The notes: generated by a model from the sequence alone, not told the origin. Numbered from the stretch's first letter, positions 1 through 4,821 are shown. The stretch: 4,821 nucleotides of DNA from a virus (IMGVR_UViG_2531839474_000008), one strand, 5' to 3'. A program made the numbers and translations.

Positions 1-1829
1 CTGAGATCCAGCTGCCAGCGGGAAATACTGATGCGCAGCGCCGCCAGCGCATAAACGAAGCAGTCGAGTGCCTCATTGCGTCGCTTTTTGCTGTCCCACA
101 GTATTTTTTTCCTGCCATCCACCCATTTTTCGACCTGCTCTTCAGCAGTCAGCTGCTGCGCTTCGGTCAGATCAAAAATATCCGGGTTATTCGGGAAGTG
201 AACGGCACCGGGAAGCGGTTCATCCCCTTCCGGCGTCAGTGTGAAGCGGTTATAAATCTGCTCTTTCGCGGTATCCGTACCGATTTCGGTAAGGTAAACC
301 CCGTTTTTGTTTCGCTTACGTGGCATGCTGGCCACCGGCTTTCCGTAGACGGATGCCCCTTTAATGAGGATCACCCGGAACAGCCCATGTTTTTTCGAGC
401 GTTCATACACAATGGTCGGGTCAATCCCGCCAGTATCCCAGCAGATACGGGATACCGACATTTCTGCACCATTCCGGCGGGTATAGGTTTTATTGATGGC
501 CTCATCCACACGCAGCAGCGTCTGTTCATCATCGTGGCGACCCATAATAATCTGCCGGTCAATCAGCCAGCTTTCCTCACCCGGCCCCCATCCCCATACA
601 CGCATTTCGTAGCGCTCCAGCTGGGAGTCGATACCGGCGGTCAGGTAAGCCACACGATCAGGAACGGGCGCTGAATAATACTCTTTCCGCTCTGCCATCA
701 CTTCAGCATCCGGACGTTCGCCAATTTTCGCCTCCCACGTCTCACCGAGCGTGGTGTTCACAAAGGTTTTACGTTTTCCCGTATCCCCTTTCGTCTTCAT
801 CCAGTCTTTGACAATCTGCACCCAGGTGGTGAACGGGCTGTACGCCGTCCAGATGTGAAAGGTCACACTGTCAGGCGGCTCAATCTCTTCACCGGATGAC
901 GAAAACCAGAGAATGCCATCACGGGTCCAGATCCCGGTCTTTTCGCAGATATAACGGGCATCAGTAAAGTCCAGCTCCTGCTGACGGATGACGCAGGCAT
1001 TATGCTCACAGAGATAAAACACGCTGGAGGGGTCATCCGGCGTCCATTTGAGGCCAAACGGCGTCTCTTTATCGCCAAATTTAAGGTACTGCTCCTCCCC
1101 GCAGTGCGGGCAGGCAACATGAAAACGCATAAAATGCGGGGATTCACTGGCTGCACGCTCAATCTGACAGGTGCCTCTCACTTTGGGCGTGGAGCCACGG
1201 ATGGACTTTGGCCAGACCGAGCCTTCAATACGCTTATCGCCCAGGAACGTCGGAGAGCCTTCCTGTTCAATATCCTCATCAAAGGCAGCAAGTTCATCAT
1301 AACCCGCCACATCCACCGACTTTTCACGGTAGTTTTTTGCCGCTTTACCGCCCAGGCACCAGAAGCCACGACCATTGGTGAAACGCTTCATGGTGAGCGT
1401 GTTATCCCGGTGCTTTTTGCCATACCACGGAGCCAGCGCCAGCAGCGACGGAATATCACGGATGGTTGGCTCAACGTGAGTTTTCATGAAGTTCTCGGCA
1501 TCACCATCCGTCGGCAACCAGATAAGTGTGTTGCGTTGCTTATGCTCTATGAAGTAGGCATAAACACCCAGCAGCATTTTGGAATAACCGACACGGGCAG
1601 ACTTCACCACATTCACCTCACGGATGTAGTCGCTGCCCATCGCATTCATGATGGCCCGCTGAAAGGGCAGTGTTTCCCAGCGCCCTTCCTGGTATGCGGA
1701 TTCTTTCGGGAGATAGTAATTAGCATCCGCCCATTCAACGGCAGTCTGTGGCTCCGGCCTGAACAGTGAGCGAAGCCCGGCGCGGACAAAATGCCGCAGC
1801 CTGTTAACCTGACTGTTCGATATATTCAC
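1..1829 (-). CDS. A: Terminase large subunit gpA, partial; about 609 codons present, C-terminal end lies beyond the window
   Basis: Hand translation of the minus strand from the GTG at 1829..1827 gives MNISNSQVNRLRHFVRAGLRSLFRPEPQTAVEWADANYYLPKESAYQEGRWETLPFQRAIMNAMGSDYIREVNVVKSARVGYSK... and stays open to position 1, ending ...EALDCFVYALAALRISISRWQLDLS. It is collinear with lambda gpA as recalled, with a few substitutions, and includes the P-loop-like KSARVGYSK. The start overlaps the Nu1 3' end by 26 nt as in lambda. It is absent from the ORF track only because there is no stop inside the window. Confidence 0.95.
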   Translation of the reverse strand, partial: MNISNSQVNRLRHFVRAGLRSLFRPEPQTAVEWADANYYLPKESAYQEGRWETLPFQRAIMNAMGSDYIREVNVVKSARVGYSKMLLGVYAYFIEHKQRNTLIWLPTDGDAENFMKTHVEPTIRDIPSLLALAPWYGKKHRDNTLTMKRFTNGRGFWCLGGKAAKNYREKSVDVAGYDELAAFDEDIEQEGSPTFLGDKRIEGSVWPKSIRGSTPKVRGTCQIERAASESPHFMRFHVACPHCGEEQYLKFGDKETPFGLKWTPDDPSSVFYLCEHNACVIRQQELDFTDARYICEKTGIWTRDGILWFSSSGEEIEPPDSVTFHIWTAYSPFTTWVQIVKDWMKTKGDTGKRKTFVNTTLGETWEAKIGERPDAEVMAERKEYYSAPVPDRVAYLTAGIDSQLERYEMRVWGWGPGEESWLIDRQIIMGRHDDEQTLLRVDEAINKTYTRRNGAEMSVSRICWDTGGIDPTIVYERSKKHGLFRVILIKGASVYGKPVASMPRKRNKNGVYLTEIGTDTAKEQIYNRFTLTPEGDEPLPGAVHFPNNPDIFDLTEAQQLTAEEQVEKWVDGRKKILWDSKKRRNEALDCFVYALAALRISISRWQLDL

Positions 1830-2349
1830 TCAGCAACCCCGGTATCAGTTCATCCAGCGCGGCTGCTTTGTTCATGGCTTTGATGATATCCCGTTTCAGG
1901 AAATCAACATGTCGGTTTTCCAGTTCCGGAAAACGCCGCTGCACCGACAGGGGGATCCCGTCGAGAATACTGGCAATTTCACCTGCGATCCGCGACAGCA
2001 CGAAAGTACAGAATGCGGTTTCCACCACTTCAGCGGAGTCTCTGGCATTTTTCAGCTCCTGTGCGTCGGCCTGCGCACGCGTAAGTCGATGGCGTTCGTA
2101 CTCAATAGTCCCTGGCTGGAGATCTGTCTCGCTGGCCTGCCGCAGTTCTTCAACCTCCCGGCGCAGCTTTTCGTTCTCAATTTCAGCATCCCTTTCGGCA
2201 TACCATTTTATGACGGCGGCAGAGTCATAAAGCACCTCATTACCCTTCCCACCGCCTCGCAGAACGGGCATTCCCTGCTCCTGCCAGTTCTGAATGGTAC
2301 GGATACTCGCGCCGAAAATGTCAGCCAGCTGCTTTTTGTTGACTTCCAT
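1804..2349 (-). CDS. nu1: Terminase small subunit gpNu1 (cos-binding, winged helix-turn-helix N-terminus)
   Basis: The 181-aa ORF MEVNKKQLADIFGASIRTIQNWQEQGMPVLRGGGKGNEVLYDSAAVIKWYAERDAEIENEKL... ends ...LSEYIEQSG, essentially the lambda Nu1 sequence as recalled. ATG start at 2349..2347 and TAA stop at 1806..1804. It sits immediately downstream of cosB. Confidence 0.95.
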   Translation of the reverse strand: MEVNKKQLADIFGASIRTIQNWQEQGMPVLRGGGKGNEVLYDSAAVIKWYAERDAEIENEKLRREVEELRQASETDLQPGTIEYERHRLTRAQADAQELKNARDSAEVVETAFCTFVLSRIAGEIASILDGIPLSVQRRFPELENRHVDFLKRDIIKAMNKAAALDELIPGLLSEYIEQSG

Positions 2350-2373
2350 TGTTCATTCCACGGACAAAAACAG

Positions 2374-2488
2374 AGAAAGGAAACGACAGAGGCCAAAAAG
2401 CCCGTTTTCAGCACCTGTCGTTTCCTTTCTTTTCAGGGGGTGTTTTAAATAAAAACATTAAGTTACGAAGAAGAAGAACGGAAACGCC
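2374..2488. repeat. cosB: cosB gpNu1-binding elements: R1 (2374..2389) and R2 (2415..2430) as a perfect 16-bp inverted repeat, R3 at about 2473..2488, and an AT-rich putative IHF bend region between R3 and R2
   Basis: The plus strand at 2374..2389 is agaaaggaaacgacag and its exact reverse complement ctgtcgtttcctttct sits at 2415..2430. A third copy of the CGTTTCC core, gaagaacggaaacgcc, lies at 2473..2488. This arrangement matches lambda R1/R2/R3. The IHF site is not pinned to exact bases. Confidence 0.75.
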
Positions 2489-2526
2489 TTAAACCGGAAA
2501 ATTTTCATAAATAGCGAAAACCCGCG

Positions 2527-2538
2527 AGGTCGCCGCCC
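2527..2538 (-). other. cosN: cosN 12-nt cohesive-end sequence (GGGCGGCGACCT on the minus strand), flanked by the terminase nick sites
   Basis: The plus strand at 2527..2538 is aggtcgccgccc, the reverse complement of the lambda cohesive end GGGCGGCGACCT. It is flanked on the right by cgtaacctgtcgg, the reverse complement of the lambda right-end terminus. Confidence 0.8.
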
Positions 2539-2737
2539 CGTAACCTGTCGGATCGCCGGAAAGGACCCGCAAAATGATAATAATTATCATCTACATGTCA
2601 CAACGTGCATCTACGCCATCAAACCACGTCAAATAATCAATTATGACGCAGGTATCGTATTAATTGATCTGCGTCAACTTAACGTAAAAACAACTTCAGA
2701 CAATACAAATCAGCGACACTGAATACGGGGCAACCTC

Positions 2738-2932
2738 ATGTCAACGAAGAACAGAACCCGCAGAACAACAACCCGCAACATCCGCTTTCCTAACCAAATG
2801 ATTGAACAAATTAACATCGCTCTTGAGCAAAAAGGGTCCGGGAATTTCTCAGCCTGGGTCATTGAAGCCTGCCGTCGGAGACTAACGTCAGAAAAGAGAG
2901 CATATACATCAATCCAAAGTGATGATGAATAA
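2738..2932 (+). CDS. Small basic hypothetical protein, 64 aa, with an Arc/MetJ/CopG-like ribbon-helix-helix pattern; possibly YlcI/YnfO (DUF3950) family
   Basis: ATG at 2738 with a GGGG Shine-Dalgarno-like run about 9 nt upstream (acgGGGcaacctcATG) and a TAA stop. The protein MSTKNRTRRTTTRNIRFPNQMIEQINIALEQKGSGNFSAWVIEACRRRLTSEKRAYTSIQSDDE has a basic N-terminal arm, a beta-strand-like NIRF followed by P, a helix (NQMIEQINIALEQKG), a GSG turn and a second helix (NFSAWVIEACRRRL), parallel to the Arc FNLRWP...G.S... pattern. It uses three AGA codons and is more AT-rich than the terminase genes, as expected for a moron. The family name is tentative and from memory. Confidence 0.7.
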   Translation: MSTKNRTRRTTTRNIRFPNQMIEQINIALEQKGSGNFSAWVIEACRRRLTSEKRAYTSIQSDDE

Positions 2933-3199
2933 ACATCCCGGTTTCTTCCACCATCGCACCGGAAAAGCGACTATGAGGGTAACCCTGCGTCTGTCAGCAC
3001 AGTAAAACCCGGTGTGCATCGTTTTTGATTATTCCCGCACACTCACGCAGAAGGAATTCCCCGTCGGGCTACGGCCATGGTTAATGCGGGAATACGGCGA
3101 CGATACAGCGCAGCTAAAAGGGTAATGGACAGAAAGAGCGGTTTATTTCATTCCACAGGATTCTGAGTGCCCCCCTCCTCCAATAGGCTGAGCATCCAC

Positions 3200-3291
3200 C
3201 TATATAGTTTTAATTTTCATCAATCCATTTAACTATCGTTTAATTGTTGTCACATAGGATTCTGCCGTTTTTAACAATGCAGGATAATAAG
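3200..3291 (+). promoter_or_regulatory. Putative bor promoter and ribosome-binding region
   Basis: AT-rich sequence directly upstream of bor. A strong Shine-Dalgarno AGGA sits 7-8 nt before the ATG (gcAGGAtaataagATG). There is a candidate -35-like TTGTCA at 3247..3252 with weak -10-like ttaaca/taacaa 17-19 nt downstream. Lambda bor is known to be expressed in lysogens from its own promoter, but the exact hexamers here are not convincing. Confidence 0.3.
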
Positions 3292-3585
3292 ATGAAAAAA
3301 ATGTTGTTTTCTGCCGCTCTGGCAATGCTTATTACAGGATGTGCTCAACAGACGTTTACTGTTGGAAACAAACCGACAGCAGTAACACCAAAGGAAACCA
3401 TCACCCATCACTTCTTCGTTTCGGGAATTGGACAGGAGAAAACTGTTGATGCAGCCAAAATTTGTGGCGGCGCAGAAAATGTTGTTAAAACAGAAACCCA
3501 GCAAACATTCGTAAATGGATTGCTCGGTTTTATTACTTTAGGCATTTATACTCCGCTGGAAGCGCGTGTGTATTGCTCACAATAA
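3292..3585 (+). CDS. bor: Bor outer-membrane lipoprotein (serum-resistance lysogenic-conversion protein), 97 aa
   Basis: MKKMLFSAALAMLITGCAQQTFTVGNKPTAVTPKETITHHFFVSGIGQEKTVDAAKICGGAENVVKTETQQTFVNGLLGFITLGIYTPLEARVYCSQ, with a lipoprotein signal peptide and LITGC lipobox. It is near-identical to lambda Bor as recalled, and lies on the strand opposite the late operon, directly after Rz, as in lambda. The ATG at 3292 with its AGGA Shine-Dalgarno is preferred over the TTG at 3244 used by the ORF track. Confidence 0.93.
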   Translation: MKKMLFSAALAMLITGCAQQTFTVGNKPTAVTPKETITHHFFVSGIGQEKTVDAAKICGGAENVVKTETQQTFVNGLLGFITLGIYTPLEARVYCSQ

Positions 3586-3595
3586 TTGCATGAGT

Positions 3596-3613
3596 TGCCC
3601 ATCGATATGGGCA
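3596..3613. terminator. Stem-loop between convergent bor and Rz (7-bp stem tgcccat/atgggca, 4-nt loop cgat); weak bidirectional terminator candidate
   Basis: A perfect 7-bp inverted repeat at 3596..3602 and 3607..3613, lying 10 nt after the bor stop and 3 nt after the Rz stop. There is no clear U-tract on either strand, so intrinsic terminator activity is uncertain. Confidence 0.25.
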
Positions 3614-3616
3614 GCT

Positions 3617-4078
3617 CTATCTGCACTGCTCATTAATATACTTCTGGGTTCCTTCCAGTTGTTTTTGCATAGTGATCAGCCTCTCTCTGAGGGTGAAATA
3701 ATCCCGTTCAGCGGTGTCTGCCAGTCGGGGGGAGGCTGCATTATCCACGCCGGAGGCGGTGGTGGCTTCACGCACTGACTGACAGACTGCTTTGATGTGC
3801 AACCGACGACGACCAGCGGCAACATCATCACGCAGAGCATCATTTTCAGCTTTCGCATCAGCTAACTCCTTCGTGTATTTTGCATCGAGCGCAGCAACAT
3901 CACGCTGACGCATCTGCATGTCAGTAATTGCCGCGTTCGCCAGCTTCAGTTCTCTGGCATTTTTGTCGCGCTGGGCTTTGTAGGTAATGGCGTTATCACG
4001 GTAATGATTAACAGCCCATGACAGGCAGACGATGATGCAGATAACCAGAGCGGAGATAATCGCGGTTACTCTGTTCAT
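3617..4078 (-). CDS. Rz: Rz inner-membrane spanin (i-spanin), 153 aa
   Basis: [153 protein letters not shown] has an N-terminal signal-anchor transmembrane segment and a coiled-coil periplasmic domain. It is near-identical to lambda Rz as recalled. The ATG at 4078..4076 overlaps the endolysin TGA stop (ATGA) and follows a GGGG Shine-Dalgarno-like run; the ORF-track start at 4090 is an in-frame GTG four codons upstream. Confidence 0.95.
3676..3858 (-). CDS. Rz1: Rz1 outer-membrane lipoprotein spanin (o-spanin), 60 aa, embedded in the +1 frame of Rz
   Basis: [60 protein letters not shown] has a lipoprotein signal with a VVGC lipobox and a proline-rich mature region. It matches lambda Rz1 as recalled and lies wholly inside the Rz coding sequence in a different frame. 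Confidence 0.9.
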
Positions 4079-4578
4079 TGCTGACCCCACAAACAGATTT
4101 CACGCTCAATCTCACGACGAGTCATGAGACCTTTCCATTGCTTACCGCCAGCATATGTCCAGCGACGTAGCTGATCACATGCGCCTTTGATATCGCCCTG
4201 GTTTATTTTGCGAAGAAGCGTCGATGTTCTGAAATTGCCAGCACCCACGTTGTAAACGAATGAGTAAAGAGCGCCGCGCATTGTTTCCGGTATATCGACT
4301 TTGATGTACGGGTTAATTTGTCTGGCGACCGTGGCAAGGTCTTTATTCAGGAGGGCTTTGCATTCTGCTTTGGTATACGTTTTACCGAGCATGATGTCTT
4401 TTCCTGTATGCCCGTGACATACAGTCCATACACCAACAATATCTTTGTATGGTATGTAGCTGACACCTTCCAGACCATCGTTACCACTCGGTCCAGTGAT
4501 TAACACAGATGCTATAGCAATAGCCCCGCCACTTATCGCCGCTATTACGCTATTTCGTAGTGCCGGTGACATTGCCAT
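4075..4578 (-). CDS. R: SAR (signal-arrest-release) endolysin, T4-lysozyme-like glycoside hydrolase (GH24 type), 167 aa
   Basis: [59 protein letters not shown]... has an N-terminal Gly/Ala/Ser-rich weakly hydrophobic segment (residues about 9-30) typical of SAR domains. The catalytic triad spacing E37-x8-D46-x5-T52 matches T4 lysozyme (E11/D20/T26) and phage 21 R. A GAGGA Shine-Dalgarno lies 8 nt upstream of the first ATG. The start overlaps the holin 3' end by 29 nt. It resembles the 21-like and DLP12 RrrD lysozymes as recalled. Confidence 0.93.
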
Positions 4579-4753
4579 TCAATCTGTCCTCGCGCTCTTT
4601 GCGCTTGTAGTACCAGTTGATGCCAAATGTGCCGACAGTACAAAGAATACCAATAATGACAGCCCAGTCATTCAGGGAGAGAATGCCACCCATCGCAGTC
4701 AGTCCTCCGAAGCTGTAACTGAACCATTCTCTGATTTTGTCCATACGGTACAT
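4550..4753 (-). CDS. S: Class II holin with two transmembrane domains, pinholin-like, carrying a dual-start motif (M1 and M4)
   Basis: The 67-aa protein [67 protein letters not shown] has two predicted transmembrane segments (a Gly/Ala/Ser-rich first segment, [17 protein letters not shown], and a second, [20 protein letters not shown]) and a charged C-terminus. It sits directly upstream of, and overlaps, the endolysin gene. The M-Y-R-M-D-K N-terminus resembles the phage 21 S dual start M-K-S-M-D-K. The protein itself is not one I recognise by sequence. Confidence 0.85.
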
Positions 4754-4821
4754 GCTCTACCCATTCATTGAGGGGATTTGCTCTATGTGGATTTGCCCCT
4801 ATATTTCCAGACACCTGTTAT

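Follow-up and report, generated by a model that had tools for sequence, protein, structure and literature searches.

The window, a 4,821-nt stretch of viral DNA (IMGVR_UViG_2531839474_000008) analyzed at its full length, carries, we are highly confident, the 434-type allele of a variable moron slot that reaches from the lysis genes to cos in lambda-like phages, an allele that would differ from the long allele by recombination at a repeated boundary motif. In the window, the bor start codon lies about 753 bp from the cohesive end, and ylcI is the sole recognized gene between the two. This arrangement is already known from the right end of phage 434; it is ordinary and about as common as the allele of lambda.

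The window is a segment of a lambda-like phage or prophage in the orientation opposite to that of the lambda map (Table 1). E. coli prophages and phages, PhiR34_1 among them, gave its best matches, at ~98.6 to 98.8% over positions 1 to 4532, and no record identical over the whole window was found among the sequence matches. The last ~50 nt (4771 to 4821) match the ends of a multicopy IS3-family element (IS2-like terminus TGGATTTGCCCCTATATTTCC), and this terminus lies ~20 to 35 bp upstream of the pinholin start codon. The insertion sequence may separate the lysis genes from the late promoter, which would suggest that the prophage is defective.

Table 1. Features of the window and the lambda homology blocks returned by BLAST (lambda coordinates are those of NC_001416)
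Feature	Window position	Strand	Details
Terminase large subunit	to ~1830	-	
Nu1	1804-2349	-	
cosN 12-nt cohesive-end sequence	2527-2538		AGGTCGCCGCCC, reverse complement of lambda GGGCGGCGACCT
cosN nick	between 2538 and 2539		
Homology block 1, conserved right-end block	2539-2949		lambda 48502-48092; 395/411 identical, no gaps; holds cosQ, ylcI, and a junction repeat copy
cosQ, packaging-termination subsite	2562-2568	-	GGGTCCT (+ strand AGGACCC)
ylcI-like gene	2738-2932	+	64-aa YlcI/YnfO family protein (DUF3950)
Junction 12-mer	2938-2949	+	CCGGTTTCTTCC; single copy in the window
Boundary stem-loop, weak	2938-2962	+	CCGGT-N15-ACCGG; left edge of the module upstream of bor
Spacer	2950-3004		diverged counterpart of lambda 47019-46975
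Conserved element, ~108 nt	3005-3112		lambda 46974-46865; 82% to lambda, 92.6% to ev099
Homology block 2	3005-3115		lambda 46974-46865; 82%
Allele-specific block	3116-3237		122 bp; same block upstream of iss/bor in L008, L009, and L011
Homology block 3	3238-4078		lambda 46809-45966; 94.9%
bor-proximal leader and ribosome-binding site	3238-3291	+	lambda 46809-46753; RBS annotated at the homologous 434 position
bor (= iss)	3292-3585	+	97-aa outer-membrane lipoprotein, homologous to lambda bor
Rz/Rz1	3617-4078	-	
SAR endolysin	4075-4578	-	
Pinholin	4550-4753	-	start codon at 4753

The bor ATG (3292) and the right cohesive end (2539) are separated by 753 bp in the window and by 1750 bp in lambda (NC_001416; bor at complement(46459..46752), genome end at 48502), a difference of 997 bp, and window position 2539 aligns with lambda 48502. 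An earlier note on this DNA had put the interval about 1 kb shorter than that of lambda, taking bor to lie ~1.75 kb from the lambda right end, and both figures proved correct. It had also proposed an alignment to the lambda right arm. A BLAST comparison of the window with lambda 45000 to 48502 returned three homology blocks (Table 1) and placed the boundaries at lambda 48091/47020 and at 46864 to 46810. The net 997 bp is the sum of changes of -1072, +10, +1, +67, and -3 bp (window versus lambda). Lambda 48091 to 47020 is missing from the window (-1072 bp), the spacer has 55 nt in the window versus 45 nt in its diverged lambda counterpart (+10 bp), 1 bp is added inside the 110-nt homology block, the allele-specific block of 122 bp stands in place of an unrelated 55 bp in lambda (46864 to 46810; +67 bp), and the bor leader is shorter by 3 bp. 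Most of the length difference traces to one segment, the 1,072-bp ybcW-ybcV cassette of lambda, and the second, smaller change is the 122-for-55-bp replacement upstream of bor. Both ybcV (DUF1398) and ybcW are absent from the window, where no BLAST block covered lambda 46975 to 48091 and no DUF1398-like open reading frame (ORF) was found.

Both cosN and cosQ are intact, and the window has the cosN sequence of a lambda-type packaging site with the cosQ heptamer at the lambda spacing. We placed cosQ from the homologous position annotated in phage 434 (OL657226, locus positions 24 to 30), which is identical in lambda; bases 1 to 12 of the 434 record are annotated as the cohesive end. Together with the three-block alignment, these intact sites support the earlier proposal that the window differs from lambda by an internal indel and that the flanks at the packaging site are conserved. 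That proposal had the lambda match next to cosN extending over roughly 100 bp (2539..2660); the match is real, but its extent is 411 bp. The 16 mismatches within it fall at 2555 to 2614 (9 mismatches), at 2673, and at 2914 to 2942 (6 mismatches). Its most diverged portion is the cos-proximal 76 bp, which holds 9 of the 16 and in which cosQ is unchanged. Also in this flank is a promoter-like site on the minus strand at 2574 to 2601 (GTGACA, a 16-nt spacer, and TATCAT), a consensus match only, at 10 of 12 positions, that adjoins cosQ and is directed at cos and Nu1. A 13-nt inverted repeat at 2636 to 2668 (ATCAATTATGACG / CGTATTAATTGAT, 7 nt apart) is identical in lambda and lies ~70 nt upstream of ylcI; it could be a candidate operator if YlcI binds DNA.

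The YlcI-like protein matched Pfam PF13132 (E = 2e-20; 72.8 bits versus a curated cutoff of 25) and the NCBIfam model YlcI_YnfO_N (NF041551; E = 1.6e-9; 37.6 bits versus a cutoff of 30). Its lambda homologue, complement(48109..48303), is identical at 62 of 64 residues and is intact, and it goes without annotation in NC_001416. The records of lambda imm434 (OM418626) and of 434 annotate the gene as a coding sequence, and in DLP12 it bears the name ylcI. The earlier note had described this ORF as ribbon-helix-helix (RHH)-like and as what a deletion had left behind. The second description did not hold, because the ORF lies inside the 411-bp conserved flank and is encoded by lambda too. The first could not be confirmed: Pfam gives only DUF3950, and searches of the PDB with ORF 2738 to 2932, by sequence and by fold, returned no RHH protein. 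AlphaFold2 predicted a basic unstructured N terminus followed by two helices, at low confidence (pLDDT of 60 from one sequence and of 65 when 16 close homologues were added). This predicted topology is compatible with an RHH monomer, and the RHH label is a guess. YlcI proteins labeled Staphylococcus aureus are contaminants and do not mark natural hosts. Our search of the literature found no work on the function of YlcI, YbcV, YbcW, or the intergenic element.

We then compared the window with named systems. The right end of phage 434 (OL657226, 47241 to 47993) also has an interval of 753 bp, identical to that of the window at 748 of 753 positions and without indels. Like the window, 434 has cosQ, the DUF3950 gene, and a bor/iss-like lipoprotein gene, as well as Rz, Rz1, and the SAR endolysin gene, and the two are 96.8% identical over window positions 2539 to 4573. 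It differs by five substitutions in the interval, in the holin region beyond 4573, and in being without the terminal IS element of the window. The only 434 annotations in the interval are the DUF3950 gene, bor, cosQ, and consensus-pattern features (CII site and RBS), with no terminator or promoter feature between the DUF3950 gene and bor. The 434 genome was published in 2022, and the morons of phages 21 and 434 differ from those of lambda (Feiss et al. 2022, PMC9119081). Lambda and DLP12 share with the window cosN, cosQ, ylcI, the 108-nt element, bor, and Rz/Rz1, at the identities given above and in Table 1, but they carry the 1,072-bp ybcW-ybcV cassette and another 55-bp block upstream of bor; the order in the cryptic prophage DLP12 is borD-ybcV-ybcW-ylcI-nohD. 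A further allele, of the ev099/Qin type (ynfO-ydfO), has a long YlcI variant and a DUF1398 gene without ybcW. It resembles the window in the cos-proximal block up to 2900, in the stem-loop motif, and in the 108-nt element, but differs in the YlcI C terminus (77 aa), in the ybcV-like gene, and often in having KilA-N or Rha downstream instead of bor. Lambdoid phages are mosaics in which modules are exchanged at short conserved boundary sequences (Susskind and Botstein; the "morons" of Hendrix). The slot is like these cases in having alternative cassettes between conserved flanks and a short motif at the joints; the difference is that the role of the motif in the window is read from its position, and from sequences alone.

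The 1,072 bp present only in lambda hold lambdap79 (47738 to 47944, YbcW) and lambdap78 (complement 47042 to 47575, YbcV; Pfam DUF1398, E = 2e-46). The two genes lie on opposite strands, and a copy of the stem-loop motif that belongs to the cassette follows them. The cassette is bracketed by a 12-bp direct repeat, imperfect in that 10 of 12 positions match. In the long forms, CCGCGTTCTTCC lies 5 nt past the ylcI stop codon and CCGGTTTCTTCC lies 10 nt past the ybcV stop codon, and the two copies are 1,072 bp apart in lambda, in PhiR26_1, and in L010, a prophage of E. coli AL.H8. The search for microhomology at the junctions that the earlier note had suggested was thus rewarded with a 12-bp repeat at the joint, and an in-register match of at least 10 of 12 within 12 nt either side of both breakpoints arose by chance in 23 of 20,000 shuffles. 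The most informative comparator was L010, where window positions 810 to 2949 match L010 1 to 2140 at 98.0% and window positions 2938 to 3112 match L010 3201 to 3375, the stretch after ybcV, at 99.4% (174/175). Both alignments overlap on exactly the 12-mer. As in a microhomology-mediated deletion, the long form has the repeats on either side of the segment and the short form has one copy; however, the flanks are not otherwise parental, the 36 nt to the left of the junction having six differences that are fixed between the sampled short and long alleles. The 12-mer of the window matches the distal repeat in sequence and follows the context of the ylcI side (ACATC). A crossover would fall within the first 3 nt (CCG), or within TTCTTCC with subsequent correction, and exact identity at such an inferred crossover is only 3 to 7 nt.

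The cassette (lambda reverse-complement 413 to 1480) was also found, at 89% identity, in L171, a prophage with a DUF1441-type small terminase, and copies of it occur in up to 13 places in the genome that carries L171. There it begins just past the position of the proximal 12-mer and finishes within the distal 12-mer; a complete motif stands to its left, and the stem-loop after ybcV is a third variant, GTCCGGC...GCCGGAC. Compared with L171, the ylcI-proximal copy of lambda looks like a full motif that has degenerated and lost its pairing (CCGCG TTCTTCC CTCCGA ACAGGAC). We also considered the 12-mer as a general linker and rejected this, because the genome of phage 434 has a single exact copy and its matches with two mismatches are at chance level (8 observed versus 3.9 expected).

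Next, we examined how often each form occurs. Counted as BLAST places at at least 80% query coverage rather than as curated alleles, the short interval was present in 25 phage records and, among 5,426 complete E. coli genomes, in 951 (about one in six), and the lambda form was present in 34 phage records and in 954 complete E. coli genomes, the latter number being inflated by K-12 laboratory strains. Among the 22 full-length phage records listed, 434 included, the 753-bp interval was 98.8 to 99.6% identical. From IMG/VR and annotated collections, we gathered 127 loci with a search pattern that fixed one stem arm of the 108-nt element. These loci display many gene arrangements in the slot; 26 loci have the short ylcI-motif junction, 14 have the long junction, and 27 have a third type in which the long YlcI variant is directly followed by the DUF1398 gene, as in ev099 and Qin. 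The ylcI 3' ends of all 26 short loci differ from those of all 14 long loci at six positions in the last 36 nt before the junction, and the preceding 240 nt are nearly identical between the two alleles.

Several additional arrangements were seen. Further slot alleles occur in L008 and L009 (E. coli NMBU_W05E18 and S103EC); one allele lacks ylcI and has only ~480 bp from cos to iss, and another has a TonB-family gene and a small ORF instead (L008/L009). In L107, a short-form locus from IMG/VR, an insertion of ~1.3 kb that begins TGAACCGCCCCGG lies in the spacer between the stem-loop and the element (at ~3000), and its start resembles what we take to be an IS629-type terminus. A scan of contigs added no wider taxonomic diversity, its 36 hits being Escherichia genomes or contaminants from lambda control DNA. 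Lambda sequence was found in assemblies labeled Pseudomonas, Kitasatospora, Cohnella, Flavobacterium, and others (L135 to L170), on contigs of 48 kb or of the 3.5 kb typical of sequencing control DNA; these are contaminants and not natural hosts.

We propose the following model. The window's allele runs cosN, cosQ, ylcI, boundary stem-loop, spacer, 108-nt element, and bor, and in the alternative allele of lambda, DLP12, and many other prophages a self-contained 1,072-bp cassette separates ylcI from the conserved element. The two alleles would differ by recombination at the motif CCG(C/G)(G/T)TTCTTCC, the cassette having been either lost between two copies or gained at a pre-existing ylcI-motif junction, and the 122-for-55-bp replacement upstream of bor would be a separate event. 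The mechanism may have been slippage or annealing at the microhomology or else relaxed homologous recombination of lambdoid phages with prophages, of the type that Red-beta promotes. In experiments, lambda and DLP12 often recombined across precisely this region, with stimulation close to cos (De Paepe et al. 2014, PMC3945230). The alignments indicate that the difference is an old presence/absence polymorphism of the cassette and not a recent deletion in the window's genome, because the short and long alleles consistently differ in the last 36 nt and because the cassette is found as a unit in an unrelated phage context. A single clean deletion from any sampled long form would not give the window sequence, and a deletion private to the window's genome is excluded by 434, by the phage records, and by the 951 E. 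coli genomes. That the length difference is an artifact, either of a misassembly that collapsed a repeat or of misremembered lambda coordinates, is so improbable as to carry almost no weight, given that the lambda coordinates were confirmed in NC_001416, that the same interval is found in the independently sequenced 434 and 434B, in many phage isolates, and in the complete genomes, and that the sole repeat at the junction is 12 bp long.

The direction of the change is harder to assign. If a lambda-like ancestor lost ~1 kb between the 12-bp repeats, the short form would be derived. Deletion between short direct repeats is a common mechanism, the long forms hold both of the copies that it needs, and the module after ybcV in L010 would make a suitable parental right flank for the window (174/175 over 2938 to 3112). 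However, the product should then keep the long-type ylcI 3' end (ATTAAAAGTGATGAAGAATGA), whereas all 26 short loci have ends of the type ATCCAAAG...GATGA(A/G)T(A/G)A, and the degenerate proximal copy is more easily explained if the ylcI-motif junction came first. We hold a derived short form to be possible, but only tentatively. We see about an even chance that the short form is instead ancestral, with the lambda/DLP12 lineage gaining the cassette by illegitimate or short-homology recombination at the motif after ylcI. The cassette travels as a unit elsewhere, next to the DUF1441-type terminase region of L171 and in up to 13 places in that genome; the motif bounds the bor-upstream module on the left without exception behind several different neighbors; and the ylcI-proximal copy in the long forms is not only degenerate but also not self-complementary. 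Against this, a donor with the exact left joint was not found among the sampled loci, the ylcI 3'-end differences would need cotransfer or later divergence, and the argument is one of parsimony only. From the degeneracy of the ylcI-proximal copy in the long form, we lean slightly toward the short junction as the older state and toward a gain of the cassette in the lambda/DLP12 lineage. The "deletion or replacement" of the earlier note stands as an indel and as a replaced block upstream of bor, but deletion is only one of two possible directions.

Between ylcI and bor lies a 175-bp module made up of the stem-loop, the spacer, and the 108-nt element. In 119 of the 127 loci, the stem-loop precedes the element by no more than 140 nt, with several different left-hand neighbors. 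Its arms are CCGGT/ACCGG in 72 loci and CCTGT/ACAGG in 37, are mismatched or shifted in 11, and are CCGGC/GCCGG in L171. Its position is always either the left margin of the bor-upstream module or directly past the ybcV stop codon, and its motif is unique in the 434 genome. The 108-nt element itself occurs in 127 Escherichia phage or prophage loci in many different gene neighborhoods and contains a 10-bp inverted repeat (3030 to 3039 and 3085 to 3094). Lambda has a double compensatory change in this stem (CCCGGA/TCCGGG), and ~7 other stem variants are transitions that leave the stem paired, through G-U, on the minus strand alone, the strand with the sense of late transcription in lambda; this is weak evidence, in that one arm was fixed by the search pattern, the variants are related by descent, and the z-scores are unremarkable. 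Folding of 2995 to 3130 as RNA gave weak z-scores (-1.49 for the plus strand and -0.06 for the minus strand). Alifold and pair counts were suggestive for the minus strand but biased by the fixed stem arm of the search pattern. In an Rfam scan of the whole window (E <= 1), the interval had no match, and the only three matches were microRNA-like and attributable to chance. The element has a 37-aa ORF with a GTG start in the window (3012 to 3125) and an annotated 54-aa ORF in ev099. We rejected it as a conserved gene, because lambda has a frameshifting 1-nt deletion there and no Pfam or NCBIfam hits were found, and a site variable among all four bases at codon position 1 further disfavors a coding reading. 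The paired changes in the stem-loop arms, the G-U-preserving stem, and boundaries kept across neighborhoods hint that the module could be a functional unit, either a structured RNA of the late transcript or a recombination-prone linker for cassette exchange, and we regard this as unlikely.

Finally, we looked at bor and its expression signals. The Bor protein matched Pfam Lambda_Bor (E = 6.4e-31; 106.7 bits versus a cutoff of 25), and its N terminus, MKKMLFSAALAMLITGC, includes the lipobox LITGC. HK630, which is identical to lambda over the interval, has a promoter annotated in the element in the bor direction (TGGACA-N15-TACAAT, equivalent to lambda 46908 to 46882). The window has CGGCCA and TACGGC at that position (3072 to 3098), so the hexamers are not conserved. 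Because they are replaced, bor of the 434-type allele must use another promoter, possibly one in the 122-bp block at 3116 to 3237. A consensus scan of 2400 to 3700 found no plus-strand promoter for bor or ylcI at at least 9 of 12 positions, and its observed counts were close to those expected from shuffles (3 versus 2.5 promoter-like and 4 versus 1.7 terminator-like sites).

Taken together, these comparisons make the "missing kilobase" a standard allele of a well-known mosaic region, and as such it matters little. For annotation, ylcI exists in lambda even though NC_001416 omits it, and prophage comparisons should treat ybcW-ybcV as an optional cassette. Only the conserved noncoding module that separates ylcI from bor is new here, and it merits a mention rather than a claim. 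The window's phage goes without two accessory genes, and the expected consequence would be no effect on DNA packaging or on bor. With its breakpoints mapped exactly and a 12-bp repeat at the joint, the slot is a tidy example of how accessory cassettes may come and go beside the packaging site.
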